NCBI GenBank assembly: GCA_016871815.1
Contig: VHBT01000004.1
Coordinates: forward strand, 5,454 to 69,453
Origin: Candidatus Babelota bacterium
GTDB lineage: Bacteria; Babelota; Babeliae; Babelales; GCA-2401785
Length of the DNA: 64,000 bases
Reading direction: 5' to 3'
The position numbers and the translations under genes were made by a program. Below, one piece after another: positions 19,016 to 62,229 of this stretch (the stretch's first letter is position 1; each line of letters starts with the position of its first letter). The notes beneath the pieces are model-generated. The model did no database searches, was not told the DNA's origin, and saw nothing but the letters and a program-made list of their open reading frames with translations.

Positions 19016-20092
19016 ATGAACACCCTTAAAAAACTTTTTTGCTTTGTGCTTCTTTTTATCGCAGGCTCTGCCGCTCCTGCCGCCCTAGAACTTTCATTGT
19101 CTGCTGGTCCTCGGGCAACTCTGGCCGACATTTTTGGTTCAACACAGAACGACAAAACAATTTTTAATATCCCAAACACCCCGCACTTTAGATATTGGTA
19201 CGATTTTACAGCACCTCGTGAATACAATGCTTTTTACACAACAACCGCAGGCACAATCTCGCTTGGTGGCCTTGTCCGCTTTATTGATGAAGGCCTTGAA
19301 ATTTTTTCAACCGATGCGGCATACCAAGAGTGCAAACAAGCCCTCAATAAAATGATCGAGCTCCATAAAGACTATCAAGCTCGCCCATCAAAAAAGAAGC
19401 GCGCAGCCCTTGAACAAGCTCAAGTAGAGATTATTGAGTCACTTTCTAAAGTTGAACTTTCTGAACAAACAACAACCGATCTTTGCGCTCTTCTTTCTAG
19501 TCCAGAACAGTCAACATTAAAAAAAATTGTTTCATTATTCATTCTTCCGTATCGATCTCACTTGGTTGAAAAAGAAATTCCAACAAAAGCTGTTGTTAGC
19601 CGCGGAGAACTATGGAAAGAAGTTGTTAAATACTGGTGGGGCGGCATAACGCTTGGACTGTTTGTAGGAGTATCGCTATTTCCCGTGATTGGAGCCGTGA
19701 CCCCATTTGTTGCAACAACATTTTTTGATTGGATGTATCCATCTGGATCAACATTCGCACTCTCAAAAACAATTGTTTCAGGGTTTGATAAAACAAAGAA
19801 TGAATTTATCAAAGAAACAATTTCTCTCTCATCTGCTATGGATCGCTCAGAAACAAAAGAACTCTTTATAAAACACTGGGGCAACAATTTGATGGGACAA
19901 GTAATGCAAATTCCATTAACAATTGCACATGTTGCACTTCGTTGTACCAACTTTAAACTTGCACCAGAACCAGAAGATGGTGTTATTGTAACCCTTGACA
20001 GAAGCTTGAATAACTCAGCAACAGGAATTGACCCAACTCAAGACTTTATAAACAACTCTGCCAACGATTCTCACTCAGCGCTTGCTGCATAA
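19016..20092 (+). CDS. Hypothetical secreted/membrane protein, cassette protein A1 (paralog of 21123-22019)
   Basis: The ATG at 19016 gives signal peptide MNTLKKLFCFVLLFIAGSAAPAALE. Internal ~35-aa hydrophobic segment WWGGITLGLFVGVSLFPVIGAVTPFVATTFFDW. Shared motifs with A2 are listed in the findings. Confidence 0.6.
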   Translation: MNTLKKLFCFVLLFIAGSAAPAALELSLSAGPRATLADIFGSTQNDKTIFNIPNTPHFRYWYDFTAPREYNAFYTTTAGTISLGGLVRFIDEGLEIFSTDAAYQECKQALNKMIELHKDYQARPSKKKRAALEQAQVEIIESLSKVELSEQTTTDLCALLSSPEQSTLKKIVSLFILPYRSHLVEKEIPTKAVVSRGELWKEVVKYWWGGITLGLFVGVSLFPVIGAVTPFVATTFFDWMYPSGSTFALSKTIVSGFDKTKNEFIKETISLSSAMDRSETKELFIKHWGNNLMGQVMQIPLTIAHVALRCTNFKLAPEPEDGVIVTLDRSLNNSATGIDPTQDFINNSANDSHSALAA

Positions 20093-20111
20093 CAAAACTC
20101 ACTCACAATTC

Positions 20112-20144
20112 AAACGAGGCATAAAAAACATGCCTCGTTTTTTC
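20112..20144 (+). terminator. Rho-independent terminator between A1 and B1
   Basis: Stem AAACGAGGCAT (20112-20122) / ATGCCTCGTTT (20130-20140), followed by T residues. Confidence 0.7.
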
Positions 20145-20277
20145 ATAGAAACAAAAAAATATCGTTTTTCAGAAAATTTGATAGTTTTTCGAACAATCTC
20201 AAATTTAAAACACAATAGTAGATTTTCAACTATTTTTCTTACATCAAATTTTGATTTTTTTTAAAAATAGCTTGTTC

Positions 20278-38521: not shown

Positions 38522-39682
38522 TTATTCTTGATCTTCTTCGCATGATCTTACCGCAACATCAGCAATATCTCGACTTACAGCTTCTTCTACTAATTCATTT
38601 GTCATTGCTGAAACAGTCGCTTCTGAATCTAAAACAGCCCTAACTTCTGCAACAGCTTCTTCATCAAGCGATCTTACAGGTTCATCAACAACAAGATCTA
38701 GTGGGCGAATGCTAAAGTATAAATTTTGATGACGCGCAACTCCGCCAAGCTCACTGAATTTTTCAAGATTTTTCAATGAAAACTCTGAAACATCAACACC
38801 TCTAACTCCCAACGAATTGAGCATGTTTGCTGTTGATTGAGAATCAATTAACGCTTCAGATTTTCCAGTAAACCAATCACGATATTGACCAAGGTAACAC
38901 TCAACAGTACTTCTTAATGCTTCTGATTGCGCACCTGCTGCTTCTAACAATTCCGCTTGAATTACATCCATGCGGTGCAAACATTTATGTGCTGTTTCAT
39001 CAAGAGCATTAAATGCCGATAAATCAACTGCTCCAGATCTGGTTACCGCAAGCTCCACAAACTGCCGTGTTGCCCCTTCAACAGAATCATACAACATCAG
39101 CTTCCAACCATTTGAAAGATATTCAACAAACAGGCCGTATTTTTCAATCAAAAAGTTCAAGAAAACTTCAACGTTAGTTGGGATTCCAGCAATCGCCGAA
39201 ACTACCGCTTCGCCTGTTTCTACAAGCATATCGCCGACCGCAACAACAGCCTCTCCGATTTCCCCAAGAGCCTCACTGCTTGCTTGAATAGCCTCACCAA
39301 CTTCTTCTTGTGCAACTGCGATGCTTTCCTGAGCCTGGGCAACTTCTTCTTTCCCCTGTTGATCTGTAAGATTTCCAAGTTCTTGTAACGTCTGATGAAG
39401 CGCTAAAACGGTTGTATGAGCAAGCGCCTGGATATTTTCTTCGCAGCAACCAGGACCAGGAAGAACCTCTACTCCCGGGCCATTTTCAATTTTAAGGTTT
39501 GGAATTTCATGTGTTACAAAATGTTCAGAATCAGGTTCAGGAAGCAAAACCTCTTCTTGTCCTTGAGAAACTTCATCAAGCTCTTCTGATTCTACTGCCA
39601 TCACTTGCGAGTCAGAAAAAACATTTTGTGGAAAATGTAATGCGCTCAACGCCATTAACAAGATTATCAATTTTTTTGACAT
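38522..39682 (-). CDS. Hypothetical secreted acidic protein
   Basis: 386-aa ORF with signal-like MSKKLIILLMALSALHF. Glu/Ala/Val-rich with GEA-type internal repeats. Confidence 0.5.
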   Translation of the reverse strand: MSKKLIILLMALSALHFPQNVFSDSQVMAVESEELDEVSQGQEEVLLPEPDSEHFVTHEIPNLKIENGPGVEVLPGPGCCEENIQALAHTTVLALHQTLQELGNLTDQQGKEEVAQAQESIAVAQEEVGEAIQASSEALGEIGEAVVAVGDMLVETGEAVVSAIAGIPTNVEVFLNFLIEKYGLFVEYLSNGWKLMLYDSVEGATRQFVELAVTRSGAVDLSAFNALDETAHKCLHRMDVIQAELLEAAGAQSEALRSTVECYLGQYRDWFTGKSEALIDSQSTANMLNSLGVRGVDVSEFSLKNLEKFSELGGVARHQNLYFSIRPLDLVVDEPVRSLDEEAVAEVRAVLDSEATVSAMTNELVEEAVSRDIADVAVRSCEEDQE

Positions 39683-44447: not shown

Positions 44448-45494
44448 TCAAGATACTAAGTTATACTTCCATCGAATGTCATCGGCAGTCTTTTTACAAT
44501 GAACGACCAACTCATCAAATGTTTTTTTCATGAATAAAGAAGACGTGGAAATTAGGTTTTTATTTAATAAAAATTCTATGTTCGCATAAGGATCCAAGAA
44601 ACAAATAATTTCATCTTGAGGAAAATCCGCTTCTATTTGAAGCTGCACACAAACCCCTTGCCTGTTTACATAATTATTAACGGGAAATTCTCCCCAGGCC
44701 ACAATCATGTTACACGCCACAGCCAACTTTAAGGCGAAATGCTTGCGTGATCCAAAAAACCCCAAAAGATTTGGGTACTTATTATCAAAATACGCTTGAG
44801 CAAAAAGCTGCTCTGAAGATGAATTGTCTGCTGAATCAAGAGAAAAAGTTTTTCTCTCGTGCTCTGCTAATAATGAGACCCTATCCCTAATCAACAACGG
44901 CTTACTATCTTTCAGGGCATATTGAGCAACTGAATAGTCACCTCTCAAATAACGGCATGACAATAAATCAACTATATCTTCTTCTACTATTGGCTTTAGG
45001 TAATCATCTGCAATAACGATTAATGGAGCAAGCTCACAATTCCATCTTGCAAAGTCAAGAGCCCTTAAAGCCGCAACAAAGCGCTTATCTCTCAGCACGC
45101 CCTCTGAAATAATAAAAATAAACCTCGCTCCACATTCTCTGTATGGTAAATCACGAGAAAAGCGCGGATGATAGCCGCCATGATATCTCGTAACATCATC
45201 TAAGTTGTCTAGCGCACTTACATCACTCAACGCGCAAACATAATATGCAAATCTATTAACTCCACTTTCGTAATTCCATTTTTGCTGAGGATCGTTCGCC
45301 CCATTAAAATAAATTGATGCAATTTTTGCGGCCGGATGAGACTTGGTAAGCTCAGTTATTACTGCATCCATAAGTTTTTGAATATCAAGGGCTACCTGCA
45401 CAGAAGCCTGAGGAGAGCTCGACGGATACACATGAGCCACCCAAGTTACAACACCAACTATCACCAATAAAAAAGCTAGTACTGTTTTTTTCAC
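44448..45494 (-). CDS. Hypothetical secreted protein, family C (paralog of 47323-48975)
   Basis: Signal MKKTVLAFLLVIVGVVTWVAHV. Collinear similarity to the N-terminal ~350 aa of the 550-aa protein (motifs in findings). Confidence 0.6.
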   Translation of the reverse strand: MKKTVLAFLLVIVGVVTWVAHVYPSSSPQASVQVALDIQKLMDAVITELTKSHPAAKIASIYFNGANDPQQKWNYESGVNRFAYYVCALSDVSALDNLDDVTRYHGGYHPRFSRDLPYRECGARFIFIISEGVLRDKRFVAALRALDFARWNCELAPLIVIADDYLKPIVEEDIVDLLSCRYLRGDYSVAQYALKDSKPLLIRDRVSLLAEHERKTFSLDSADNSSSEQLFAQAYFDNKYPNLLGFFGSRKHFALKLAVACNMIVAWGEFPVNNYVNRQGVCVQLQIEADFPQDEIICFLDPYANIEFLLNKNLISTSSLFMKKTFDELVVHCKKTADDIRWKYNLVS

Positions 45495-45624
45495 TTTATT
45501 AATACCTTTTTTGCATCAAAATTACATTTAAAGTGTAGCATATTTGTTATTTAAGTATTTTTTATTTAAAAATCATGCAAAAAAACATTTTTAACGCTAT
45601 TTAACGACCAAAAAAATTTCAAGA

Positions 45625-46110
45625 TCAGTTATTCATCCAGATAAACCAATTCAGGTACATTGCAAAAAAGAGCCAAAAAGCGTATGGAGCGAATAAGAAA
45701 GAAATATTTTTTGTTCGCTCATCTGTATACAGCTCATAAATCAAAAAACAAACCGTAAAGACAAGCGCAATCAAACAAATGAGGGCCGCTCCAATTGATT
45801 TATACGCAAAAAACAATGGCGACCAGGACCAATTCAAAATTAACTGAAAAACATACAATTTTTTTACCAAGGTTAAATCAAAAATAATCCCAAGATCCCA
45901 AATCATCCAACCCCCAAGCGCAATCAAAATGTATAAAATCGGCCAGACAATACCAAACGTATAATTGGGAGGAGTCAACGGCGATCGATTGATATGCTCG
46001 TACCAATCTGGAATAGCACCCCTGGTTATTTTTCCAAGAACAAAACTCATTGCTAATAAAACAAAAATCCAGACAAAAAGCTGCGCTGCTTTTTTAAAAT
46101 TAATCATCAT
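45625..46110 (-). CDS. tspO: TspO/MBR-family tryptophan-rich sensory protein
   Basis: 161 aa with 5 TM segments. Trp-rich motifs PPNYTFGIVWPILYILIALGGWMIW and LNWSWSPLFF. Confidence 0.8.
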   Translation of the reverse strand: MMINFKKAAQLFVWIFVLLAMSFVLGKITRGAIPDWYEHINRSPLTPPNYTFGIVWPILYILIALGGWMIWDLGIIFDLTLVKKLYVFQLILNWSWSPLFFAYKSIGAALICLIALVFTVCFLIYELYTDERTKNISFLFAPYAFWLFFAMYLNWFIWMNN

Positions 46111-46205
46111 AAAAAGTCTCTTAACTTCTAATTAATACAAAATTAAGGTAAACCCGATGAATCTAAAAATTAAACATTCTTTATAAAAAGATTATTAAGT
46201 TACGG

Positions 46206-47090
46206 CTATTTTTTAAAATCAGCTAACGAGTAATTGTTAAACAAAGCTATTTCTGCGTTCTTTTTAGTAAGTACTGTAGAAAAATCTTTCCAAAGCAAAC
46301 GGCCAAATCTTTGTGTAACAAAAATACTTAAACCCAAAAAAGCAAACAGTCGCGCATAATTTCCCCATGCATTTCTTTCTTGAGTTGAATATCGTTTGTA
46401 TATCTCTTCGCTACCAGCAATTGTCATCATTATTCCCGCAAAGCAAATAAACAGATTTGTTATTCCAACAATACCTAAAGATGATTTTTGCCCGAGGTTA
46501 AAAAGAATACTAAGTAAAACAAACTTAATTTCTTCATTACACTCCGGATTTTCAGATTCCATCACCAAGCGAGCTGATAAGAATTTATTTTCGTGCTGCT
46601 CTATGACCAAAAACACTTTAATGAGTTGCAATTCTGTTTTAATAAAAAAAGTAGTAGATTTTTTTTCCTGCCAAGCCTGCAAAATCAATTTCTTTAATCT
46701 ATCCAAACCATCTGATTTTGCGGTAGCAATATTCACACTTATTTCAGTTGCTATGGATGGCTTTGAAAACCAATAAAAATAAGTATTAATAGCCTGTAAG
46801 TCCTGCTCGGATGACAAATCTACGGTCAAAACCGTATTTTCCTCACCAAAAGACTCCCTGTTTGGTATACCTGCTCCTTGCTCTACCCCAACAAGACAAA
46901 TTTCGCCAGACAGCTGATATGCTCCATAAAACTCAAGCCCATTAGCTAATGTCTTTCTGAGATAGGTTGATGGACCCTGTGCAGCATGAGTAGAAACCAC
47001 AGCTTCTTCGCTTACATCGTTCTCGTGAACAATATCGCTGCCAAAAACAGGTGAAAGGAAAACAAAAAAGATCAAAATATATTTATTCAT
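46206..47090 (-). CDS. Hypothetical secreted/membrane protein
   Basis: 294-aa ORF with signal MNKYILIFFVFLSPVFG and two hydrophobic segments near the C-terminus. Confidence 0.5.
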   Translation of the reverse strand: MNKYILIFFVFLSPVFGSDIVHENDVSEEAVVSTHAAQGPSTYLRKTLANGLEFYGAYQLSGEICLVGVEQGAGIPNRESFGEENTVLTVDLSSEQDLQAINTYFYWFSKPSIATEISVNIATAKSDGLDRLKKLILQAWQEKKSTTFFIKTELQLIKVFLVIEQHENKFLSARLVMESENPECNEEIKFVLLSILFNLGQKSSLGIVGITNLFICFAGIMMTIAGSEEIYKRYSTQERNAWGNYARLFAFLGLSIFVTQRFGRLLWKDFSTVLTKKNAEIALFNNYSLADFKK

Positions 47091-47322
47091 AGAGGTTACA
47101 AGTTACTTAAAAACAGATCTAATATACTAAAAATATAACAAATAAACGTTATTTAAAGCCTCAAAGCACAACCTAAAAAACAAACCCTTTATTGTGAAAA
47201 AACGCTCTACAATTTGATTCAGACTGAATCAAATTGATCAAAAACAATAAAATGTTGAATAAAAATTACATCACCCGGCATGAGACAAACAACATGCAGT
47301 GCAAAAATATTGGCGATAAGAG

Positions 47323-48975
47323 TTATTTAGAAAAATATTTAGCAGTATTTCGAGCTCTTTTGATAACCTCATCAAGAAACGCTTCTTTGGTTTTTGGGAC
47401 TCTTTTTATATCTTTCGTAAAAATGCGCTCACGAACATGATAGGTAGGAAATTCAGCATATTTTTCTGGGCGAGACCAAAAGTTGTATTCCAAATAATCT
47501 TCTCGATCAAGAACAATAATTTTTTGATTCGCATTTTTATACGTTCTGTCTTTGTAGTAAGGAATATCAAAATCTCTTAACGTATCTCTCGACCGATGTA
47601 TTTTCTGTCCTTCTTCCAATGTTTGCCATTCGCCACTTGTAAGCACCACAATAGTTAGCTTGCCTCCACGCGGTTTAATTCCAGCAATTTTTTCTTTATC
47701 GTCACACCGCACAACCGCAAACTCACGACCAACTTTTACTTTTAAATCTTTAAACAACTGCTGCATGGTGTAGGTAACTGCAAGATTTTCTTCTTCGTCT
47801 GTGAATTTTTTAACACCATCGATCATTTGCTTTTTTTCAATAGCTTCTTTGCATAATGCAACCAAGCCCTCAAAGGTCGAAGGCTCACTTGAAAAGTCAC
47901 CCGTTAATAGTGTGTCTCGATTAAACTTGAAGGTCATGGAATGTGAATCCAAAAAACAAACTATCTCATTTTCAGGGGCTGAAGCATAATAAGCATGGCG
48001 TTCTTCATACAAATTATACCGCGAAATATTGCCATTTTTGCTTACATAACAACAATAAGACGGCTGCCTTTGAGAACCTGAATCCGGTTGTTCATATTCC
48101 CCAACTTCATTCCAAGACACTGTCATGTTACACGTTTTTGCTAATTTAACTGCGATATATTGTTGAGATCCACCAGTTACCCTGCGAGCCAATGCTTTAT
48201 TGAAATACGCCTGAGCAAAGCGTTCTTCTGCTGACACTGCGCTCGTACAATCAAGGTTAAAAATCTTTCTCGTGTGTTGTGCTAATCCTTTAAATCCATC
48301 CCGAATTAACACGGGCAAACCATTTTGAAATGCATACTGATCAACAAAAAAAGAATTCCTATAAATATCGCAAAAATTATCACTGGCCAAATCAAGCAAC
48401 ACTTCTTCAGCAACAGGATTATGATAATTCTCTGGAACAATAATCAGTGATTGCAAACCCCGACAACTCATAACTACAGCAGAAAAAGCTGCCACAAAAC
48501 GCCTATCCTTAAGTATGCCTTCTGAAATAATAAGAAAAAAAGTTTTGTATCCTGCAGTGCCTTCTGGGAATGCGCTCAAAAAGCGCGGTACATATTTCGA
48601 ATCAATACTACTAACATCATCTAGAGCAGCTATATCACTCACCGCGCAAACAACCGCAGCCTTATCTACAAGATTACAAACTCTCGTCTGTTCATCATGC
48701 ACCCCATTAAAGTGGATTGTTGCAACAGTATAATAACGGGGAGAAAAGGTTTTATGGTACTCTCCAACAATCGCATGAATAAGTTTTTCCATATCAAGAC
48801 TTACCGCTTGAGCTGATTCAGGCTCACAAGACTTTTCAGCGCCGCCCCCCATACCTACCTCAGCGCATTCCTGCGTCAGACCTTCAGGATTTACATTTTT
48901 TTTGTACACCTGAACCACGCAAGCTGCAGCACAAGCCACCGCAAAAAAGAATACCATTCTTTTTATCTTCATCAC
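47323..48975 (-). CDS. Hypothetical secreted protein, family C with ~200-aa C-terminal extension
   Basis: Signal-like MVFFFAVACAAACVVQV. The N-terminal two thirds are paralogous to 44448-45494. Confidence 0.6.
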   Translation of the reverse strand: MMKIKRMVFFFAVACAAACVVQVYKKNVNPEGLTQECAEVGMGGGAEKSCEPESAQAVSLDMEKLIHAIVGEYHKTFSPRYYTVATIHFNGVHDEQTRVCNLVDKAAVVCAVSDIAALDDVSSIDSKYVPRFLSAFPEGTAGYKTFFLIISEGILKDRRFVAAFSAVVMSCRGLQSLIIVPENYHNPVAEEVLLDLASDNFCDIYRNSFFVDQYAFQNGLPVLIRDGFKGLAQHTRKIFNLDCTSAVSAEERFAQAYFNKALARRVTGGSQQYIAVKLAKTCNMTVSWNEVGEYEQPDSGSQRQPSYCCYVSKNGNISRYNLYEERHAYYASAPENEIVCFLDSHSMTFKFNRDTLLTGDFSSEPSTFEGLVALCKEAIEKKQMIDGVKKFTDEEENLAVTYTMQQLFKDLKVKVGREFAVVRCDDKEKIAGIKPRGGKLTIVVLTSGEWQTLEEGQKIHRSRDTLRDFDIPYYKDRTYKNANQKIIVLDREDYLEYNFWSRPEKYAEFPTYHVRERIFTKDIKRVPKTKEAFLDEVIKRARNTAKYFSK

Positions 48976-51262: not shown

Positions 51263-51607
51263 TTATCTTAAAAATCCATTTTCATGGATATTTCTTCCTG
51301 AGATAAAGTGCCAATGTAAATGCATCACTGATTGGCCTGCAGCTACACCATTATTCGCAATAATATTAAATGCCTGGTCCCCTGGAAGTTGAGCCGCCAA
51401 ATATTGAACCGTCTTTACCATAATCGCTGCCATGCGAGCATCAAACCCAGGGTCCTTCATGTCCTTAACAACTGTTTTGGGAATAATCAAATAATGAATA
51501 GGAGCCACCGGATTAATATCCTTGATGACAATAACATCAGAATCTTCATGCACAATTTGAGCAGGAATTTCACGATCAATTATTTTTGAAAAAAGAGTTT
51601 TTTGCAT
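51263..51607 (-). CDS. Histidine triad nucleotide-binding protein (HinT-like)
   Basis: MQKTLFSKIIDREIPAQIVHEDSDVIVIKDINPVAPIHYLIIPK and the triad HLHWHFISG. The track's longer ORF to 51775 runs across a tRNA gene and was trimmed. Confidence 0.85.
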   Translation of the reverse strand: MQKTLFSKIIDREIPAQIVHEDSDVIVIKDINPVAPIHYLIIPKTVVKDMKDPGFDARMAAIMVKTVQYLAAQLPGDQAFNIIANNGVAAGQSVMHLHWHFISGRNIHENGFLR

Positions 51608-51647
51608 ATCAACCTCAGAAAAAAGAAAGAGGAGAATAAAAAAGAAT

Positions 51648-51734
51648 TGGTGCCGAAGATCGGAGTCGAACCGATACGATATCACTATCGCGGGATTTTG
51701 AGTCCCGTGCGTCTGCCTGTTCCGCCACTTCGGC
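51648..51734 (-). tRNA. tRNA-Leu (anticodon CAA)
   Basis: On the minus strand: acceptor GCCGAAG/CTTCGGC, anticodon arm CGGGA-CTCAAAA-TCCCG, long variable arm, T-loop GGTTCGACTCC, encoded CCA. Confidence 0.9.
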
Positions 51735-51907
51735 CAGCACATTTCAAAGAGTACCACACCAGAATCACGCGTCAAGGGAATAATGCGCTACTATAAACAT
51801 CTTTTCAGAAAAAACAGCTATTTATGCATAAAATAACACGCTTTTTTCAGCATCTTTGCTATGCTCTGCGGCAAGCACTTAAAATTCAAATAAAAAACGA
51901 GATTGCC

Positions 51908-52036
51908 ATGAACACAAAAAAATCTTTACTGTTTTTTTTTCTCTTTTTATCAATTTCAACGATTAATTCAATTGATTTACATAAAAACATCGCCTCAGGG
52001 CTTCGTTTTCATACCACAATTTGCTCTCGTACATGA
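51908..52036 (+). CDS. Small signal-peptide ORF (42 codons), possibly the detached 5' part of the next ORF
   Basis: MNTKKSLLFFFLFLSISTINS... Its stop overlaps the downstream ATG as ATGA. Confidence 0.3.
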   Translation: MNTKKSLLFFFLFLSISTINSIDLHKNIASGLRFHTTICSRT

Positions 52037-52551
52037 ATTACTATCTGCATGAAGACGAACAACTAGACCCCGAGCTCATCAGACCACTCAAAGACGACCT
52101 TGCCCTTGAGCATATATTTACACATCTTAATTTTTTTCTCGAAAAAGCATCCAGCGATCATGGCGAAAAAATTGCTCTGATTTTTTTAAAAGAAATCCTA
52201 ACAACACAAATTGCTTTTTCATCTGGATTAACACTGGCAAATGATATTGAAGTAGCAGAAGCGATCCGCCGAGAAATAAGCTCTATGAAAGAAGAACTTG
52301 ATATCATATCAGGATGTTTAGCCGCCGCACACGCCCCGCTACCATCGCATTCATTATTTATTTCCCCTCAAAGCACTTCACCGTCTTCCTGGGGCGATAG
52401 CTATAGTCCAGAAGAAGAATCTTTAATGAGTCTTGTGTATAGTGGGCATGAGGATTCTGATGACCAAGACGAAAGCCAGACAAGCTATTCAAGCCGATCT
52501 GATTCTTCATCCGGATCAGAAACAATCTCCCCTGAATCAACTCGTCGATGA
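52033..52551 (+). CDS. Hypothetical protein with Ser/Asp-rich acidic C-terminus
   Basis: ORF in a different frame from 51908-52036. No signal peptide of its own. Confidence 0.45.
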   Translation: MNYYLHEDEQLDPELIRPLKDDLALEHIFTHLNFFLEKASSDHGEKIALIFLKEILTTQIAFSSGLTLANDIEVAEAIRREISSMKEELDIISGCLAAAHAPLPSHSLFISPQSTSPSSWGDSYSPEEESLMSLVYSGHEDSDDQDESQTSYSSRSDSSSGSETISPESTRR

Positions 52552-53144: not shown

Positions 53145-53221
53145 GCGCCCATAGCTCAATTGGATAGAGTACCAGACTACGAATCTGGCGGTTAGAGGTT
53201 CGACCCCTCTTGGGCGCACCA
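53145..53221 (+). tRNA. tRNA-Arg (anticodon ACG)
   Basis: Acceptor GCGCCCA/TGGGCGC, anticodon arm CCAGA-CTACGAA-TCTGG, encoded CCA. Confidence 0.9.
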
Positions 53222-53280: not shown

Positions 53281-53372
53281 GGAGAGATGGCTGAGAGGTC
53301 TAAAGCGCTTGCCTGCTAAGTAAGTATTTGGGGAAACCTGAATCGAGGGTTCGAATCCCTCTCTCTCCGCCA
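53281..53372 (+). tRNA. tRNA-Ser (anticodon GCT)
   Basis: Acceptor GGAGAGA/TCTCTCC, anticodon loop CTGCTAA, long variable arm, T-loop GGTTCGAATCC, encoded CCA. Confidence 0.9.
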
Positions 53373-53409: not shown

Positions 53410-53499
53410 GGAGAGATGGCTGAGCGGTTGAAAGCACCGGTCTTGAAAACCGGCATACCTTAACGGGTATCGTGAGTTCGAATCTCACTCTCTCCACCA
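53410..53499 (+). tRNA. tRNA-Ser (anticodon TGA)
   Basis: Acceptor GGAGAGA/TCTCTCC, anticodon arm CCGGT-CTTGAAA-ACCGG, long variable arm, encoded CCA. Confidence 0.9.
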
Positions 53500-53691
53500 T
53501 AAAATCATTTACCTAAAAACTATTAATTCCTATGGTTTTCTTCACCTTTATTTTCAATCCGAAACCACTAAAAAACTTATTTTTCAAAAAATGGCTCTTT
53601 TTTAGTCCGTAAAAAAGATAAGTCTCAAGCGCATCTCTTTTGTTAGAATTTAACAACAATGAACACTTTTTATATTAAAAAACGGAACACT

Positions 53692-55305
53692 ATGTCAAAA
53701 AAGACTTTTCTTGTTATTTTTTACCTATGTTTTGCAATTCAAGCAGCCAACAGCGCTGATGAAGTAACTTCTACCACAAAAACGATTGAACACCTCATTC
53801 CGTCAACCGAAGTAAAGCTTTTTTACGTCCCCTGCGCAACACAACTGCCGACAGGCAATTTCCATGAAATTGATCTAAAACTCGTTAACAAAACAACCTT
53901 GCAAGAATTAGGCTCTAAAAGTGAAATCCAGCAAGCAATAAAAGAGCGTAAAAATTTTATTTTTAGACTTAAACATCCTATTTCGGGTAAATCTGTTGTT
54001 TTGCAAGTAACATTCAATGCCCAAAACCCAACTCGCTCATTTGGAGTTCAACTCCCGCCATACACTGACGTTCGCATCTACGGAACCGAAAAGCACTGCT
54101 CGCGAGAAATTGAGCAGTTTGCTCTTTCTCTTTTTGTTGAACCAAAAACCTCTTCAAGGAACGCTCTTTTTTCCCTCTTGGGACTTGTGGCGACGGGCAT
54201 AATTGGACTTGCTGCAAAAGAACCTCTTCTTAATTGGTGGGATCTGCGCAAACCCGTTGCGCGCTCAAAATACAAGGAAAAAAAAGCCGCCCTTGCCGAA
54301 AAAATAAGCGCGCTTGAAGCGCAAGTCGCTAGACTTGAAGACGAAAAAGAAGCCCTTGAGTCCACAATGGACGAAAAAATTGAAAGCGTGGTTACAAAAA
54401 GAGCAGCAGAAATGACCGCTCAAAAAACAAGTAACCTTGAAGCGGATAAACAAAATGCTTATTCCGCTCGCCAACTAGCAGAGGAAAGACTTATCGCAGC
54501 ACAACGTGAACTTTTGGACCTACAAAGAGAATTAGAAGTTCTTGATCGCGATCACAAAAAACTTCAAGCAACTCATACCGCTCAGCAACAAGAAGTCTTA
54601 GCACTTCGTCGTAGACAACCAGTATCGAGCACCACAGAAACCATCACAGACGAATCACTTCCTATTCTCGGGGGCGAAGAAGAGTCAAAAACAACTGAAG
54701 ATATACCAGTCGAACCAGGCTCAACGCTTACAAGCGCGTATATCGCAACTCTTGCAAAAGAAAAGCTGCTCGCAGCTGGCTGCAAAAAAAAGCTTGTCAC
54801 GCTGTCCAACCTTGCCACGCAACCAATCGACCTTACTGCCGGACTTACAAAATGGCTAACGTCCGATGAGATTTTAATTCTTACTTACTCAGAGATACAA
54901 AAGGACAATAATGCGGTTTATATCTTCCTCCTAAAAAATAGCGAATCTCGATTCAAAAGATTTCTCTTACTCAACGACTGGATAATCCCAACAATAGATA
55001 TTGCATCACAAGAAATTGTTAAACGGCAAGCCTTTTTGGTACATGACTCATGGAACAAAATTGTGCCAATGCTAGAAGAGGATACAGAAAAAAAACCAAC
55101 AGTTGCAGCCTGGTCAATGACCCAGACAAGTGAAGACCAAGAGTTCAATCCTTTGCTCTGGCGAACAGGCTCCCGAGAAGGATTCATCGATGGCCGACAA
55201 GTATCAAAAATCCTAGTCGATCTTGAGCAACTTCCTCAGACAATTTCGCCCGAGCTGCAAACAATGAATAAGTTTTTCGAGCTCGGATTGGAAGCACAAT
55301 CATGA
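53692..55305 (+). CDS. Hypothetical secreted / single-TM coiled-coil protein, family D1
   Basis: Signal MSKKTFLVIFYLCFAIQAANS (the ATG at 53659 is an alternative). Mid-protein TM ALFSLLGLVATGIIGLAA, a ~110-aa coiled coil, and C-terminal ...MNKFFELG. Confidence 0.55.
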   Translation: MSKKTFLVIFYLCFAIQAANSADEVTSTTKTIEHLIPSTEVKLFYVPCATQLPTGNFHEIDLKLVNKTTLQELGSKSEIQQAIKERKNFIFRLKHPISGKSVVLQVTFNAQNPTRSFGVQLPPYTDVRIYGTEKHCSREIEQFALSLFVEPKTSSRNALFSLLGLVATGIIGLAAKEPLLNWWDLRKPVARSKYKEKKAALAEKISALEAQVARLEDEKEALESTMDEKIESVVTKRAAEMTAQKTSNLEADKQNAYSARQLAEERLIAAQRELLDLQRELEVLDRDHKKLQATHTAQQQEVLALRRRQPVSSTTETITDESLPILGGEEESKTTEDIPVEPGSTLTSAYIATLAKEKLLAAGCKKKLVTLSNLATQPIDLTAGLTKWLTSDEILILTYSEIQKDNNAVYIFLLKNSESRFKRFLLLNDWIIPTIDIASQEIVKRQAFLVHDSWNKIVPMLEEDTEKKPTVAAWSMTQTSEDQEFNPLLWRTGSREGFIDGRQVSKILVDLEQLPQTISPELQTMNKFFELGLEAQS

Positions 55306-56591
55306 AAATAAATAAATGGTGTATTCTTTTTGTGAGTCTTTGCTCTTTTGCAAATCCAAATGTGGTAGAACCTCTAAGCGATGAAACCGAACAAGAAATT
55401 TCAACTCTCAATAAATCGTTTCCCACGCAGCTAGAAGATCTAGAAGATGCGAAAGAAACTCCCATCCTAAGCAACCCATCAAAGCTTGAAATTATTATAA
55501 CGCACAAAAAGACGTCCGATTTCCCACGATCAGTTAGAACGATTTTATTCTCAAAGGCACCCAAAGATGGAAAAATCAGGGTTACTTCATCAAGCTCTGG
55601 ACTTGCAGATCGACTACATGATCAAATTAAAAATCGCAGATCCGGAACAATTTTTTTTAAAAATGTAAAAAATCAAACCGATAATTTTTGTGTAGAATTT
55701 ATTTTCTCAAAAACACACACATCGTGTCTTTCGATCATTATTTATTACAACAACCAACTACTTCCTACCCAAATTGTCGAGTTTGTAAAAACATTCACCA
55801 CGGCCCAACCACCGATAAGCAAAAAAACAATGTTTCTGGTTCCTGCCTTGCTTGCGTCTGGACTTTTTTTGTTCACCAATAACCAATACAAACGAATGGC
55901 TCGCGCCAAGACCTTTTTGCTCTACCGCAAGTGCAGAGCTCAATTCGCAAAAAGGTTTATCCCTATGCCTGGATCAACTCCAGCGCAAATAATAAAGCAA
56001 TTTTTTGAAGAAAAAGGATCAAAAAAACAACTTTTTACCACGCAAGATCTTTGGGGGACGACCGATCTTGCGGGCGTTGAAGATTTTTTTACCAGTGGAA
56101 AGCGATGGGTAGGCGAAAAAGAAGAACCTGCAGCACCAAGAAGAAATCGTTACAACTACAGATATCCCCAAGCCCCAACTCGAATGGCAACAGCAGATGA
56201 ACAAGGAATTTTAATCGTCACAATCACAGAACTGCTAACGCATCCTAAACTGCTACAATTTCTAACGGATAATTGCGAGATTAGCCACAATGAAACCAGA
56301 AGCCGTGAAAGCCTTGCTACCGGAACTGGATATGGAACAAATTATAGCAGAAACCCAACCCAATCTATCAAAACGGGAAACAGAATTTTAATCATCAACG
56401 ATAACACAACAGCCTGCGATCCAAGATTCAAAGACAAGAGTGGCATAAAGCTTGGGACCGCTGACTCGCTTTATGGAAAAATTGATTCACGACTCTGGGG
56501 TGAAATCGAAACGGATTTATGCTCTGACCTATATTCTGATAACCTAAAACAAATAAATAAATTTTTTGATCTTGGCGCAACGCTTATTTAA
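55302..56591 (+). CDS. Hypothetical secreted / single-TM protein, family D2
   Basis: Its start overlaps the upstream stop (ATGA). Signal MKINKWCILFVSLCSFA, TM MFLVPALLASGLFLF, C-terminal ...INKFFDLG. Confidence 0.55.
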   Translation: MKINKWCILFVSLCSFANPNVVEPLSDETEQEISTLNKSFPTQLEDLEDAKETPILSNPSKLEIIITHKKTSDFPRSVRTILFSKAPKDGKIRVTSSSSGLADRLHDQIKNRRSGTIFFKNVKNQTDNFCVEFIFSKTHTSCLSIIIYYNNQLLPTQIVEFVKTFTTAQPPISKKTMFLVPALLASGLFLFTNNQYKRMARAKTFLLYRKCRAQFAKRFIPMPGSTPAQIIKQFFEEKGSKKQLFTTQDLWGTTDLAGVEDFFTSGKRWVGEKEEPAAPRRNRYNYRYPQAPTRMATADEQGILIVTITELLTHPKLLQFLTDNCEISHNETRSRESLATGTGYGTNYSRNPTQSIKTGNRILIINDNTTACDPRFKDKSGIKLGTADSLYGKIDSRLWGEIETDLCSDLYSDNLKQINKFFDLGATLI

Positions 56592-56881
56592 AAGCTTTAA
56601 ATTTTGAGTTAAATTAACTTGCGAAATAAGTGATTTAACTCAAAAACAACCCTCCCTAAAATAATTCATCGCGCTTTACACCAAGCAGATATGCTTATAA
56701 TCGAAATACAGCAACCTTAAAAAGGCCCTCATTTATCCAAAGCTTTTTTACACGATGTTATTACTTTTTAAAAAATAATAACGCTCGGGCAAAATGATTT
56801 AACGATAGGAACTTGTTTGATTTTCAAGATCTGTTTAGACTATGCCTTAAATTTGCAGAGTAGAATTAATCAAGGTTTTCG

Positions 56882-57874
56882 ATGATTACATTTGCCTATC
56901 CGTGGGTATTGGCGATCGGCTTTTTATCATTAATTGCATGGTTATTTTTTGCACACCTTCGCAAATTTGCCATCGTATATCGCTACTCTCAGCCCTCAAC
57001 TCTGGCCCCTCACACTCAGCAACTTCCTGCAGCAACAAAATTGCTTATTGTTCGCTCGTTATTTTTTGCAACACTTGTACTACTTGCAGCTCGTCCACAA
57101 AAAATAGATGAAAAATCTCGAGTAAAAGTAGATGGTATCGACATCATTCTTGCGTTAGACGTTTCCCGATCGATGATCGCTATCGATGACCCTCGCGACC
57201 CGCGCTCACGAATTGAAATAGCAAAAAAAGAAGCCTGCTCTTTTATCAATCGTCGAGAAAACGACGCCATTGGCTTAGTCATCTTTGCTGCTGACGCATT
57301 GTCTCTCTGCCCACTCACCCTAGACAAAAAGTTACTTACCGAACTTACCAGTGAACTTCTTATTGGCCGAGTAATTGATGACACAAACACTTTTATTGGA
57401 TCGGGCCTTGCAACAGCGATCAACAGACTCAGAAATTCAAAAGCTAAAAGTAAAGTTATCGTCCTTATCACCGATGGAGCATCTGCTCCTACCGACCCAT
57501 TTGATCTTAACCAAGCGATTGAAATTGCAAATATTTTTAAAATAAAAGTACATACAATCGGTATTGGAAGCTCATCTGAGGCATATACTAAATTGCCAGA
57601 TGGCAGAATTGTTCGCGCTGCCGGAGACTTTCAGCCCGACATGAGAACCCTCAAAAAAATTGCCGATAAGACTGGTGGTTCATGCTTTGAAGCAAAAAAA
57701 ACCAGCGAACTTGAAACCATTTATAAAAAAATTGATGAACTTGAAAAAACTAATTACGAAACAACCCTGTACGCACGCAAAGATGAATTGTTTTTGTGGT
57801 TTGCCATTCCCGCTCTCTTGCTTTTTGTTATTGAATTTGTTCTCAAAATTTTATTGTGGAGGATGCCAATTTGA
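56882..57874 (+). CDS. batA: VWA-domain membrane protein, BatA-like
   Basis: N-terminal TM pair, VWA MIDAS DIILALDVSRSM, VIVLITDGAS, and a C-terminal TM. Confidence 0.8.
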   Translation: MITFAYPWVLAIGFLSLIAWLFFAHLRKFAIVYRYSQPSTLAPHTQQLPAATKLLIVRSLFFATLVLLAARPQKIDEKSRVKVDGIDIILALDVSRSMIAIDDPRDPRSRIEIAKKEACSFINRRENDAIGLVIFAADALSLCPLTLDKKLLTELTSELLIGRVIDDTNTFIGSGLATAINRLRNSKAKSKVIVLITDGASAPTDPFDLNQAIEIANIFKIKVHTIGIGSSSEAYTKLPDGRIVRAAGDFQPDMRTLKKIADKTGGSCFEAKKTSELETIYKKIDELEKTNYETTLYARKDELFLWFAIPALLLFVIEFVLKILLWRMPI

Positions 57875-58881
57875 TGTTCAGCGCTAACACGATTACTTTT
57901 GGAGCACCAACCTATTTACCGTTTATTTTGATTACTGGATTTTGCATACTTCTTTTTTATTTTTTACAGTTCAAGCGATGTAGTAAATGGATCGAATCGG
58001 TCTCAAAAAAAGACACCCGAAATTTTCTTTTTACCGGACTTTCATCTTTTCATCGCACCGCACGGTTTGCAACAATTACCTGCTTTCTTCTTTTGTTTTT
58101 AATCAGCTTTATTCGCCCTCAGTGGGGAAAATCCGAAAATATTGTTCAGAGAGAGGGAAGAGACGTTGTTGTAGCCCTTGATATTTCTCGCAGCATGCAA
58201 GGAAGCGATGTTCTGCCAACCAGACTAGAAGCCGCCAAATTAAAACTGAAAGTCCTACTCTCTCGATTGCACTGCGAACGAATGGGGCTTGTACTCTTCT
58301 CGGGATCTGCATTCACCCAGTCGCCTCTGACAATCGATTATGATGCATTTATGTCATACCTTGATCAAGTAGATTCGGAAATGATCGCATCTGGAACAAC
58401 CGCGATCGACAAAGCGCTCTTAAAAAGCGCAAAGCTCTTTGAATCAGACGAAAACAGTGGAACTAAAATTATTTTACTTATCACCGATGGCGAAGATTTT
58501 TCATCACACCTTTCTGAGGCGAGTGAAATAATAAAATCAAAAAACATTCAAATCATAGCTCTTGGAGTTGGGACCGAAGAAGGAGCGCCAATTCCTAAAA
58601 AAGATCGTACTGGAGCAATTATCGGATACGAAAAAACAGCCACAGGAGATCTTGCGCTTTCAAAGCTCAACATAAAACGGTTACAGGAAATAACGCAAAA
58701 AATATCTGGACACTGTGTTGCCTCAACTCTTGATGATCAAGACATTGACTCGGTTGTAGAATATATTCAAAAGCTCGAGAAAAAACGGTTTGATGATAAA
58801 AAAGTATCACTACACGAAGAACGATATCCGTTTTTTATCTCAGCTGCTGCGTTTTTTTACGCACTCCACTCATTAATTTAA
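57874..58881 (+). CDS. batB: VWA-domain membrane protein, BatB-like
   Basis: The ATG overlaps the batA stop (TGATG) and follows GGAGGA. MIDAS DVVVALDISRSM, IILLITDGEDF. Confidence 0.8.
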   Translation: MFSANTITFGAPTYLPFILITGFCILLFYFLQFKRCSKWIESVSKKDTRNFLFTGLSSFHRTARFATITCFLLLFLISFIRPQWGKSENIVQREGRDVVVALDISRSMQGSDVLPTRLEAAKLKLKVLLSRLHCERMGLVLFSGSAFTQSPLTIDYDAFMSYLDQVDSEMIASGTTAIDKALLKSAKLFESDENSGTKIILLITDGEDFSSHLSEASEIIKSKNIQIIALGVGTEEGAPIPKKDRTGAIIGYEKTATGDLALSKLNIKRLQEITQKISGHCVASTLDDQDIDSVVEYIQKLEKKRFDDKKVSLHEERYPFFISAAAFFYALHSLI

Positions 58882-58891
58882 CAGGGATGAT

Positions 58892-60421
58892 ATGAAATAC
58901 CTTTTTTTTATACTCACCTATATTTTTTGCGCCCTCCCATGCTCCGCATTTTCTTGGTGGCCTTTTGGCAAATCAAAAGCAGCTCAACCAGATACATACC
59001 AACAACTCATCCAACAACAACTAGAAAATCCATTCGATCCTCTCATCAATTACAATCTTGGGGTTCTTGCTCACAAAAAAGGTAATAATTCCCTTGCGCA
59101 AGCATCATTCGACCGAGTGATTGAAGCAAAAATTGAAGCTGGAAAAGATCTATTTTCTCGATCAGCTACAAATTCAGGATCTATTTTTGCCAAAAATGCT
59201 TCCACAACACTTGAAAGCCTACAATGGCAAGAAAAAGTAATTCCAGATGATATCCTGGAAACACAACTTGCAGGACTTGATAAAGCTGTTGCTCGATACG
59301 AACTTGTCGACCCAGAGTTTGATCCAGCAACCCAACTTTCAACCCTCAAGCAGGAACTTATCGATTTTAAAAATCTTGTTATCGAACGACAAGAACAACT
59401 TAAAAAAGAAAAAAAACAAAACAACGATCAAAAACAAAACAACAAAAACGATAAGCAGCCACAAGATCAAAATCAAAAAAACAACGAAAGCAATCAAGAT
59501 CAACAAAAAGATCCAAACAACAAATCTGATTCAAGCGATCAGAAAGAAAATGACCAAACATCTGATCAAGAAGAAAAATCCGACGATACGCCAAACAACC
59601 AGTCCTGCAACAATCAATCAAAAAAACCAAACAATTCATCCCCACAAAAAGACTCCAATAATCAAAATGATACTCGTGAAAAAGAAAAAGAATCTGGCGA
59701 AAACAACCCTGCAGACAAACAAAACTCTGCAGATAAACAAGAAGAAGAAAACCATTCTGATGAGCCACAGCAGCCAGAACCAAAAGAAAAAAAACCGCAT
59801 CAAGATAATCCCGGCAAAGATTCTGGCGATGATGAACAACAAACAGACAGCTCTTTGAATGAACAAAAAGAAGAGCAATCAAACGAGCAAGCCGATGCTA
59901 ACCAAAAAGACTCCGAAAGCCATGCAGATGATGTTAAAAAAAATCTTGGACAAGAAGAAGCTATGGATTCAGATGAATCTTTAAATCAAAATCAAAACGA
60001 AACAACGCAAGAAAAAGCTACCTCAGAAAACACCCAATCGGCCGAAGATGAATCTGCAGATAATTTGAAAGAAGAACAGACAGAGTCCCAAACTGAAAAA
60101 ACCAAACCCTCAACATCTGCATCCGGTCAAAAAAGCAAATCTCTCGATCAATCAAATAATTCTAACCCCGCCTTCGAACAACAAGCAGCTCAAGAAGAAG
60201 CAGGTGCAATAAACGAAAACGAATCTTCTGCTCAAGAAGAAAGCGAAGAACAATATGGTTATTGGCATGAACAAAAAGCTGATGAAACTTCGTCAGAAAA
60301 AGCTGCCCGCATGCTTTTACAAAAATTTTCAAAACACGAAGACGAACTTCAGAAAGAACGCTTTGCTAAACGAACAGCCCTCAGCGGCGCGCAACAAGAT
60401 AGATCAAAAAATAATTGGTAA
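58892..60421 (+). CDS. TPR-containing BatC-like protein with a long low-complexity acidic/polar region
   Basis: Signal peptide and a TPR-like segment (PLINYNLGVLAHKKGNNSLAQASFDRVIEA). The region from about 59390 to 60260 encodes K/Q/N/D/E/S-rich low-complexity sequence. Confidence 0.6.
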   Translation: MKYLFFILTYIFCALPCSAFSWWPFGKSKAAQPDTYQQLIQQQLENPFDPLINYNLGVLAHKKGNNSLAQASFDRVIEAKIEAGKDLFSRSATNSGSIFAKNASTTLESLQWQEKVIPDDILETQLAGLDKAVARYELVDPEFDPATQLSTLKQELIDFKNLVIERQEQLKKEKKQNNDQKQNNKNDKQPQDQNQKNNESNQDQQKDPNNKSDSSDQKENDQTSDQEEKSDDTPNNQSCNNQSKKPNNSSPQKDSNNQNDTREKEKESGENNPADKQNSADKQEEENHSDEPQQPEPKEKKPHQDNPGKDSGDDEQQTDSSLNEQKEEQSNEQADANQKDSESHADDVKKNLGQEEAMDSDESLNQNQNETTQEKATSENTQSAEDESADNLKEEQTESQTEKTKPSTSASGQKSKSLDQSNNSNPAFEQQAAQEEAGAINENESSAQEESEEQYGYWHEQKADETSSEKAARMLLQKFSKHEDELQKERFAKRTALSGAQQDRSKNNW

Positions 60422-60432
60422 AGGATACTCAA

Positions 60433-62229
60433 ATGATCAAAAAACAATTTTTCAATTCATTTCTTTTTTTTCTACTCTGTGGACTTATTCCAAACATCAT
60501 TCAATCTCAGCAGGGTCAAAATAGCCTTACAATTTCAATTACAGGCTCGCGCTCAAGCTACAAAGACAACTCTGGCAAATTTATTTACGAGATCGATCCC
60601 GGCCAGATTTTTAACATTTTGGTTATCTCTTCTGGAAAAAACCCCATAAACGAGATCCCCGAAATCCCTGGACTGGATCAATTTAGAAATGTATTTGTAA
60701 GAAAGTCTGGTCGCTCTATGAACATCAATGGCAAAACTTCTTTAACCAATTCTTTTGAGTTTCAGGCGATAGGTGGAGATGAGGGGGAATTTGAAATTGG
60801 ACCAATCTCAACAAGTACAGGAAAATCTGAGTCTTGTGTTATCAAGGTTCGTCAGCGAACACTCGAAGAAGCGGATGCTGCTTTTCAAAAAGAGTACAAG
60901 GCAGGCGTTGCCTGCCAAGCTCGATTAGTGCTTGAAAAAGACACTTTTTTTGTTGGTGAAATAATTCCAGTAACACTCCAAGTTTACGTATGGAACGACA
61001 ACGTAGAAATAAATCATATCACTCCACAATTTGATTCATTTACTGTCAAAGAATCTGACACTGAATCATCAACCATCCAAATCGAAAATCGCCCCGTAAA
61101 AGTTTTTCAGAAAAAATTTTTCCTCTCAACACCATGGGCAGGAACAAAAAAAATTAAACCCGTGACTGTTGCGTATTCCCAAATAGAAGATGACTTTCCT
61201 TTCAACAACATCAACTTTAACTTTTTTGGCCCAACCAAAAGCATCATGCATGCCAACACTCACTCAAACGGACTTTCAGTAACAATCAAAGACACACCCC
61301 AAGGAAAAAGAAGCCACGATGCGATTGGATCATTTTCCCAATTAACACTTTCTGTCGATAAAAACATGGTCGATTTACGCACACCAATTAACCTATGCCT
61401 TAAAGTGCGGGGAAATGGGAACTTTGATGCAATTGAAATTCCACGACTCAAGCTCCCAAGACACGTACGATCATTTCCCGGAACATCAGAAAGTAAAGTT
61501 TCACTCAGCGCAAACGGAGAGTTTGAAAAAAAGTTTACCTATGTGATACAACCAATCAAACCAGGGGTGATTAAAATTCCATCTCAAGAATTTTATTTTT
61601 TTGATCCAAAAACAGAATCTTTTTCTAGCATCTCTTCCAATCAACTGACCATTAGTGTTGATGGTGATGAAGAAGAAACTGCTCAAGAAAAATTGACACC
61701 TGATACAAAAACCGAAAACTCATCTTCTGAAGATAAAGAATCTTTAATGAATGAATCAGACGAAGAGTGGCTTTCTTCTGAGCAAAATCGAAAATATGAA
61801 AAAAAATCAGATATTTTTTCTGGATTAACTCTTTTTGTTCTCGGACTTCTCAGTTTTTTATTTGGCATAGGATATTTTGCTATTTATCGTTGGATCTTAT
61901 GGCACAAGAGAAACCCCTCAAAAGCCCTTGCTATAGCACTTAAAGAGATACATGCATCTGCAACAAAAAACGCTGCGGATCTCTTTCGTATTGCGTTTAG
62001 TTTTTGCAAGCTCAAGCTGTTTAACGATCAACTAGAAAACCCAACATTCGAAGAAATCGAAGCGGCATTAAACAACAAGAAATGTAGCAAACAAATTATC
62101 GCCATTTTCATGGCTACGCTTGAAAAGCTTGCAGGTGGGGCGTTCGGCTCTCAGACTCCAATAACAAATATCTCAACCCTTCGCCAAGAACTCGAGAAAG
62201 TATTGCACCAAATCAATAATGAATTATAA
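60433..62229 (+). CDS. BatD-like (oxygen-tolerance family) protein
   Basis: Position after batA-C, N-terminal signal, repeated beta-rich modules with VGE motifs (DTFFVGEIIPVTLQVYVW), and a late TM GLTLFVLGLLSFLFGIGYFAIY. Confidence 0.65.
   Translation: MIKKQFFNSFLFFLLCGLIPNIIQSQQGQNSLTISITGSRSSYKDNSGKFIYEIDPGQIFNILVISSGKNPINEIPEIPGLDQFRNVFVRKSGRSMNINGKTSLTNSFEFQAIGGDEGEFEIGPISTSTGKSESCVIKVRQRTLEEADAAFQKEYKAGVACQARLVLEKDTFFVGEIIPVTLQVYVWNDNVEINHITPQFDSFTVKESDTESSTIQIENRPVKVFQKKFFLSTPWAGTKKIKPVTVAYSQIEDDFPFNNINFNFFGPTKSIMHANTHSNGLSVTIKDTPQGKRSHDAIGSFSQLTLSVDKNMVDLRTPINLCLKVRGNGNFDAIEIPRLKLPRHVRSFPGTSESKVSLSANGEFEKKFTYVIQPIKPGVIKIPSQEFYFFDPKTESFSSISSNQLTISVDGDEEETAQEKLTPDTKTENSSSEDKESLMNESDEEWLSSEQNRKYEKKSDIFSGLTLFVLGLLSFLFGIGYFAIYRWILWHKRNPSKALAIALKEIHASATKNAADLFRIAFSFCKLKLFNDQLENPTFEEIEAALNNKKCSKQIIAIFMATLEKLAGGAFGSQTPITNISTLRQELEKVLHQINNEL

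Follow-up and report, generated by a model that had tools for sequence, protein, structure and literature searches.

An overlapping pair of paralogous, fast-diverging genes for putative membrane proteins next to the bat cluster of a Dependentiae bacterium

In a 64,000-nucleotide stretch of contig VHBT01000004.1 from a Candidatus Babelota bacterium (hereafter the window), two overlapping open reading frames (ORFs), ORF1 and ORF2, lie between a cluster of three tRNA genes and the bat genes, a placement proposed in a preliminary description of this DNA and borne out here by ARAGORN tRNA calls and by Pfam VWA and BatD matches. We found that they are real and paralogous genes, that their overlap is kept among relatives, that their distribution is narrow and their evolution fast, and that they match no known family. 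As a tentative reading, which we hold to fall a little short of probable, the two products may form a co-translated, pseudo-symmetric heterodimer of type-I bitopic membrane proteins that share a C-terminal docking block.

The ORF listing of the window placed the two frames at 53659-55305 and 55302-56591 on the plus strand, and their products are identical to FJ366_01675 and FJ366_01680 of a Candidatus Dependentiae (TM6) metagenome-assembled genome. The ORF1 start at 53659 given in the preliminary description is likely too far upstream: since the NCBI annotation starts the gene at 53692, 33 nt downstream, and the N-termini of the ORF1 orthologues also read M-x-KK, translation probably begins at 53692. 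The stop/start overlap at 55302-55305, in contrast, stands as first described. It reads ATGA in the window and in the related locus L004 and is the 8-nt ATGCATAA in a second relative, L001, and its retention in all three genomes indicates that ORF1 and ORF2 are translationally coupled. The base composition of the pair is native.

Paralogy of the two products, also claimed at the outset, was examined by formal alignment. By BLASTP, the two window proteins aligned over their last 36 residues only (42% identity, E = 0.006), a weak similarity with which the window pair alone would fail a strict test. Profile comparison gave a positive result. When orthologue profiles of the ORF1 and ORF2 types were aligned with hhalign, the N-terminal domain (N-domain) plus the transmembrane (TM) helix matched at 95.5% (E 1.6e-8, 84 columns) and, with three sequences per side, the whole C-terminal domain (C-domain) matched at 97.3% (E 2.6e-11, 157 columns), while direct BLASTP between the two L004 proteins aligned 199 residues (E 1e-7). 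Cross-type hidden Markov models (HMMs) run with HMMER ranked all three opposite-type proteins above 3000 shuffled decoys, with E-values of 7e-10 to 3e-3 for the true paralogues against 0.12 or 0.79 for the best decoy. The order of secondary-structure elements was the same in both domains in two independent AlphaFold2 (AF2) runs. Because the orthologue profiles, the L004 alignment and the decoy test all support paralogy, we accept it, and on this evidence the pair is best described as a genuine old tandem duplication.

An exhaustive phmmer search of 1.84 billion representative proteins with ORF2 returned three proteins, namely ORF2 itself, P0004 (399 residues) and P0005 (401 residues), with no related Chromulinavorax protein among the three matches, and the 90%-identity clusters of the family were essentially singletons. 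The orthologues of ORF1 are P0002 (34% identity) and the product of L004:488-1996 (31%), and those of ORF2 are P0004 (36-39%) and P0005 (34-38%). The family was thus found in three genomes only, each with an ORF1-type gene overlapping the ORF2-type gene that follows it, downstream of tRNA-Ser(UGA). Word-indexed searches with ORF1, ORF2 and a four-sequence profile lacking the coil retrieved, besides the queries, P0002 only; the index is lossy, since the profile missed known relatives. Four back-translated pattern scans of genome and metagenome contigs yielded no confirmed relative and missed even the source genome; these collections thus apparently lack the genomes concerned.

Collinearity between the window and L001 extends ~20 kb to either side of the pair, and the neighbouring products are 68-93% identical (TopA 93%, YbeY 83%, HIT 75%, BatA 74%, BatB 71% and a 543-residue membrane protein 68%), whereas ORF2 and ORF1 reach only 36% and 34%; the BatC-like protein (47%) and the batD product (52%) fall in between. 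Divergence is uneven along both proteins. Against the L001 and L004 orthologues, respectively, ORF1 retains 55% and 39% identity in the N-domain, 22% and 30% in a helical insert, and 37% in the C-domain with either, while ORF2 retains 33% and 35% in the N-domain, 49% and 46% in the C-domain, and 60% and 54% in its last 40 residues. Among the conserved blocks of the family are VLQVTFNAQxPTRSFGxQLPPYTDxRIYGTEK and TGTGYG. On these comparisons the locus appears to be ancestral but fast-diverging, with islands of strong constraint. This bears on an early suggestion that the pair might be an unrelated insertion beside the bat genes: the pair indeed looks unrelated to bat, but a recent insertion is contradicted by its position after tRNA-Ser(UGA) in three of three genomes and by its native base composition.

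Both proteins have the layout outlined in the preliminary description, consisting of a signal peptide, an alpha/beta N-domain, one TM helix and a C-domain ending in NKFF[ED]LG (Table 1). The signal peptides were judged by inspection (a basic start, then a hydrophobic core, then small residues ahead of the probable cleavage site), and a hydropathy scan gave one further hydrophobic segment per protein. The invariant residues of the ORF1-type N-domain include Cys48 and Cys136, a pair compatible with a disulfide bond in a domain outside the cytoplasm. The 25 residues after the TM helix carry a net charge of +4 in ORF1 and +8 in ORF2, and from this basic stretch the positive-inside rule predicts an N-out/C-in orientation. 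A coiled coil of ~110 residues had been noticed in the first copy only; it corresponds to a predicted two-helix insert of ~120 residues, absent from ORF2, for which AF2 gave helices at residues 191-238 and 243-308 with a predicted local distance difference test score (pLDDT) of 60-78, the best confidence within the ORF1 model. The C-domain of the window ORF2 contains an insert of 25 residues, APRRNRYNYRYPQAPTRMATADEQG (basic, P/Y-rich, residues ~278-302), that both orthologues lack.

Table 1 Positions of the gene pair, its predicted parts and its flanking features in the window
Feature	Position	Strand	Remarks
ORF1	53692..55305	+	537 residues, or 548 from the alternative upstream ATG at 53659; hypothetical protein FJ366_01675 (NCBI)
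ORF1 signal-peptide-like N-terminus, MSKKTFLVIFYLCFAIQAANSA	53692..53757	+	Direct sequence reading; AF2 helix 3-20
ORF1 N-domain, residues 23-156	53758..54159	+	Mixed beta/alpha; most conserved part of ORF1
ORF1 predicted TM helix, residues 157-178	54160..54225	+	Hydropathy scan; basic juxtamembrane stretch follows
ORF1-specific helical/coiled-coil insert, residues ~190-310	54259..54621	+	~120 residues; missing from ORF2-type proteins
ORF1 C-domain, residues 350-537	54739..55302	+	Putatively cytoplasmic; hhalign against ORF2 C-domain, six-sequence alignment
ORF1 motif NKFFELG	55267..55287	+	Ends 5 residues before the C-terminus
Stop/start overlap ATGA	55302..55305	+	Read as translational coupling; shared by ORF1 and ORF2
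ORF2	55302..56591	+	429 residues; hypothetical protein FJ366_01680 (NCBI)
ORF2 N-domain, residues ~60-174	55479..55823	+	Follows signal-peptide-like N-terminus (residues 1-18) and variable acidic linker
ORF2 predicted TM segment, KTMFLVPALLASGLFLFTN	55824..55880	+	Direct reading; hydropathy (~176-192); AF2 helix 174-190
ORF2 C-domain, residues 226-429	55977..56588	+	ORF2-type blocks ETRSxESLxTGTGYG and QSIKTGNRILLIND conserved
ORF2 motif NKFFDLG	56556..56576	+	Ends 4 residues before the C-terminus
tRNA-Arg(acg)	53145-53221	+	ARAGORN, Rfam
tRNA-Ser(gct)	53281-53372	+	ARAGORN, Rfam
tRNA-Ser(tga)	53410-53499	+	ARAGORN, Rfam; sole neighbour of the pair kept in three of three genomes
AT-rich hairpin	56602..56645	+	Just 3' of the ORF2 stop; -16 kcal/mol, z = -6.1; without U-tract
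batA, batB, BatC-like gene, batD	56882..62229	+	Pfam VWA (batA, batB), BatD PF13584; context, outside the feature

The C-terminal motif is the most conspicuous element shared by the two types. As initially described, NKFF[ED]LG closes both window proteins (MNKFFELG in ORF1, INKFFDLG in ORF2) and it also closes both L001 proteins (INKFFDLG in each type), but L004 diverges, with INDFFALQ in the ORF1 type and INKFFDLE in the ORF2 type; the motif is kept in five of the six family members, and the family-wide consensus is accordingly [IM]N[KD]FF[DEA]L. In all six proteins the motif lies within eight residues of the C-terminus, 2-5 residues follow its closing G/E/Q, and the six-sequence alignment shows that it ends a conserved block of ~35 residues opening with G-x-[IV]-D-[GS]-R. 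Six-frame translations of the window and L001 contained no NKFF[ED]LG outside the two ORFs, and the domain HMMs found no further family copy in any of the collected sequences. Several known kinds of C-terminal signal were considered for this motif and dismissed. Sorting signals of the LPXTG, PEP-CTERM and GlyGly-CTERM types have a hydrophobic helix and a basic tail behind the motif, and the T9SS signal is a beta-sandwich C-terminal domain of ~80 residues; the pair has no terminal hydrophobic segment and no Pfam or NCBIfam sorting-domain match. The VAP-binding FFAT motif has the core EFFDAxE preceded by an acidic tract; judged by eye, the cores found here (KFFDLGA, KFFELGL, DFFALQI) differ from it at position 1, which is basic or variable, and at position 5, where a bulky L stands. 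A terminal KKFF-type signal was set aside, also by eye, on account of the residues that follow the motif, and a clamp-binding reading was likewise rejected by eye.

No family had been recognisable in the sequence, and the searches agree. Pfam, NCBIfam, PADLOC and PHROGs gave only coiled-coil noise, whether the query was a full-length window protein, an orthologue or a single domain, and PDB sequence and profile searches returned nothing real. Matches to SMC, HlyD and crescentin were confined to the helical insert (10-24 bits against cut-offs of 100-1000, Foldseek TM-scores <0.25); among anti-phage and phage families, JetC, PbeC and tape measure matches were coiled-coil noise and phrog_4108 (E 0.007) was weak and not shared by the orthologues. 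A polyubiquitin match to the N-domain (E = 0.002) proved to be an artefact of eight summed ~1-bit matches, each across a repeat junction. Foldseek searches of the AF2 models against PDB and BFVD produced no match at E < 0.001, and weak SH2, YTH and SMC fold matches (TM-scores <0.3) were discarded. The first part of the C-domain has its secondary structure in the order alpha-beta-alpha-alpha-beta; a winged helix was weighed as an assignment and set aside, as no sequence or fold match accompanied it.

In the heterodimer reading, an old tandem duplication would have given rise to two type-I (N-out, C-in) bitopic membrane proteins, both made from one bicistronic mRNA through the stop/start overlap; in the cytoplasmic membrane they would pair at ~1:1 as a pseudo-symmetric heterodimer. 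The related alpha/beta N-domains would face the periplasm and the related C-domains the cytoplasm, where the best-conserved element common to both, G-x-[IV]-D-[GS]-R ... [IM]N[KD]FF[DEA]L, might serve as a docking surface between the subunits or for a common partner. ORF1 would have gained its two-helix insert of ~120 residues between the TM helix and the C-domain, and this insert could fold back as a hairpin, thus holding the C-domain near the membrane beside that of ORF2. The narrow clade, an evolution much faster than that of the neighbours and the phylum context together suggest an envelope or host-interface role in a host-dependent bacterium, independent of the Bat/VWA system. Several points weigh against this reading. 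A type-I topology with a cleaved signal peptide and a large cytoplasmic domain is uncommon among bacterial inner-membrane proteins; the hydrophobic segment of ORF2 is short and its hydropathy stays under the 1.6 cut-off; and the signal peptides and topology were assigned by eye and from simple rules, not by a dedicated predictor. The AF2 models are poor, with a pLDDT of 46.5 for ORF1 (two-sequence alignment) and 52 for ORF2 (three-sequence alignment). Translational coupling and paralogy suggest a complex and do not prove one, and the model, in which neither protein is assigned a biochemical activity, is drawn from sequence.

A bolder version, which we consider unlikely, would make the two proteins founding members of an undescribed two-domain membrane family with folds outside PDB and Pfam, forming a clade-specific heterodimeric trans-membrane device in which a rapidly diversifying periplasmic or surface sensor is coupled to a conserved cytoplasmic output domain that binds a common partner through its C-terminal [IM]NKFF[DE]L helix. 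Alternatively, the pair could be host-targeted effectors exported through Sec, together with outer-membrane vesicles or another route, whose TM segment sits in a host membrane and whose FF-acidic C-terminal linear motif recruits a host factor. Dependentiae depend on protists, encode very large sets of signal-peptide ORFans and show outer-membrane vesicles during infection (PMC6561590); the pair also evolves far faster than its neighbours, a signal peptide plus one TM segment is a eukaryote-like layout, and the motif is near-terminal in six of six proteins. Yet no secretion-system link is visible, and by eye the motif fits FFAT poorly, with K/D instead of E and L instead of a small residue, nor is it of the terminal KKFF type, given the residues beyond it. 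It is moreover part of the ~35-residue block GxIDxR...NKFFxL, which resembles part of a folded domain rather than an isolated linear motif, and the strict co-translation seen here for two paralogues would be more usual in subunits of a complex. We regard the effector explanation, too, as improbable. The most sceptical view, that these are chance ORFs or decaying pseudogenes whose resemblance is a coincidence, could appeal to the missing family matches and to the weak direct BLASTP; it has next to no chance of being correct, and is effectively refuted by the conservation data, that is, by intact full-length orthologues of both genes in three genomes (30-39% identity) with the overlap conserved, by the strongly conserved blocks given above, and by the profile and decoy tests of paralogy.

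Adjacency to bat raises a further alternative, since MoxR (AAA+), DUF58 and small-TM genes are commonly found upstream of batA-batE, as in the Bacteroides aerotolerance operon, Leptospira and Borrelia (PMC3557215, PMC5700661). The pair might accordingly be lineage-specific accessory subunits of the Bat/VWA complex in place of the MoxR ATPase and DUF58 protein, a substitution already raised in the preliminary description. In the window the pair lies directly 5' of batA-batB-batC-like-batD on the same strand, BatA, BatB and BatD are likewise membrane proteins, no MoxR-like AAA+ gene turned up among the long ORFs of the 64 kb in a crude Walker-A screen, and in Leptospira moxR forms one contiguous cluster with the bat genes (PMC3557215). 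The proteins themselves carry no such signature, however: ORF1 and ORF2 gave no Pfam (including AAA_3) or NCBIfam AAA match and contain no G-x4-GK[ST] motif, and no Pfam VWA or DUF58 match was obtained with the full proteins or separate domains of all six family members, whereas the window BatA and BatB score clearly. Comparison of synteny around batA, proposed earlier, gave a mixed picture. Bat genes follow the pair in two of the three genomes; L001 has the order pair, SDR gene, batA-batB-BatC-like-batD, so that one gene intervenes, and in L004 a convergent photolyase-like gene comes directly after the pair, and the contig, 3.7 kb long, carries none of the bat genes. These linkage comparisons rest on three genomes, two of them collinear close relatives, and since the L001 locus is collinear with the window for ~20 kb in each direction, finding bat genes near the pair there reflects inherited synteny and is no evidence of a functional tie. 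Nor would the gap between BatA/BatB (71-74% identity to L001) and the pair (34-36%) be expected of tightly co-evolving subunits, and a moxR or DUF58 gene could lie elsewhere in the genome. An accessory Bat role is thus distinctly improbable, and the pair is best read as an autonomous bicistronic unit that neighbours bat by chance. As to the bat cluster itself, no separate DUF58 protein was recognised by Pfam among its four products and five nearby ORFs; the cluster is locally without its usual upstream partners, which may lie elsewhere in the genome.

Among characterised systems, the FtsB/FtsL pair of the divisome consists of small N-in/C-out proteins without signal peptides that form a periplasmic coiled coil. 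It resembles ORF1/ORF2 in comprising two related single-pass membrane proteins with a coiled-coil element and a presumed 1:1 assembly; the orientation predicted here is opposite, both our proteins have globular C-domains of ~200 residues, the helical insert follows the TM helix, on the putatively cytoplasmic side, in one paralogue only, and there is no sequence similarity. Chlamydial IncV, an FFAT-motif membrane effector of an intracellular bacterium, belongs to the Inc proteins, which have a bilobed hydrophobic domain. Like it, the pair would be membrane-anchored in a presumed intracellular bacterium with a conserved FF-acidic peptide near the C-terminus, but the motif here misfits the FFAT consensus and seems embedded in a folded domain, the proteins have a Sec-type signal peptide instead of a bilobed Inc domain, and no sign of export to a host is seen. 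The MoxR, DUF58 and small-TM genes share with the pair a same-strand site directly upstream of batA and membrane association; the pair differs in having neither an ATPase nor a VWA-like domain, in missing bat linkage in one of three genomes, in being parted from batA by a hairpin-bearing gap or a gene, and in a rate unlike that of BatA/BatB. Similar in kind are the signal-peptide ORFans of the Dependentiae, obligate parasites or symbionts of protists in which outer-membrane vesicles have been seen during infection: the isolate Chromulinavorax destructans has signal peptides on 44% of its coding sequences, with ORFans over-represented among them (PMC6561590). Phylum, N-terminal signal sequence, missing family and lineage restriction are alike, whereas the present pair consists of two paralogues whose stop/start overlap is conserved and which carry a large domain behind a TM anchor.

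The family is undescribed, yet a clade-restricted orphan membrane pair with signal peptides is ordinary for this phylum. If our reading is true, one small clade-restricted family joins the very large uncharacterised pool of exported and membrane proteins of Dependentiae, which is of modest practical value; no long-standing question is opened and a specialist would not be surprised. Of direct use are the likely corrected start codon of ORF1 and the family profile (alignments A5 to A8), with which new Dependentiae genomes can be annotated, as well as a caution against inferring function from bat adjacency in closely related, collinear genomes. The contrast in identity between the neighbours and the pair makes the latter a candidate host-interface or envelope component.

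The spacer between ORF2 and batA measures 290 bp (56592-56881, 31% G+C). Both this gap and its AT-rich hairpin, reported at the outset, are real, and none of 200 shuffles folded equally well. The hairpin was not called a terminator by a consensus terminator scan; even without a U-tract it is a possible transcript end, and the pair and batA are probably transcribed separately. The matching spacer in L001 showed no significant structure, and the hairpin has no equivalent in the relatives. Alignment of the regions upstream of the pair in the three genomes revealed AT-rich similarity only. Compared with the window, L001 carries two extra genes, namely a glyoxalase-family gene (L001 9453-9824) between tRNA-Ser(tga) and ORF1 and the SDR gene (L001 12951-13769) between ORF2 and batA; no remnants of either were detectable in the window, where the 290-bp gap was examined.

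Several further features of the window were noticed. The BatC-like ORF (58892-60421, 509 residues) has only a weak N-terminal TPR match and a low-complexity tail of ~330 residues (Q, N, K, D, E, S), and its 47% identity to the L001 orthologue compares with 71-74% for BatA and BatB. Between the conserved HIT and YbeY genes, an ORF at 52021-52551 (172-176 residues, with an S/D/E-rich C-terminus) is ~28% identical over 115 residues to its positional counterpart in L001 (244 residues), a second fast-evolving orphan nearby. From topA to the gene of the 543-residue membrane protein, the window has four minus-strand ORFs (44448-48972), and the corresponding L001 segment (1958-4768) differs, a 936-residue gene in that region being without a detectable window counterpart. 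The mechanical 170-residue HIT-family ORF (51263-51775, minus strand) overruns tRNA-Leu(caa) (51648-51734, minus strand); the L001 HIT orthologue aligns from 51607, and the true start probably lies downstream of this tRNA. Finally, a 1228-residue ORF at 29373-33059 (minus strand) has a signal-peptide-like N-terminus, as does a large share of the long ORFs of the window (e.g., 4090-4947, 9313-10677, 19016-22580, 26309-27448 and 38522-39682), in agreement with the high signal-peptide content of the Dependentiae isolate (PMC6561590).

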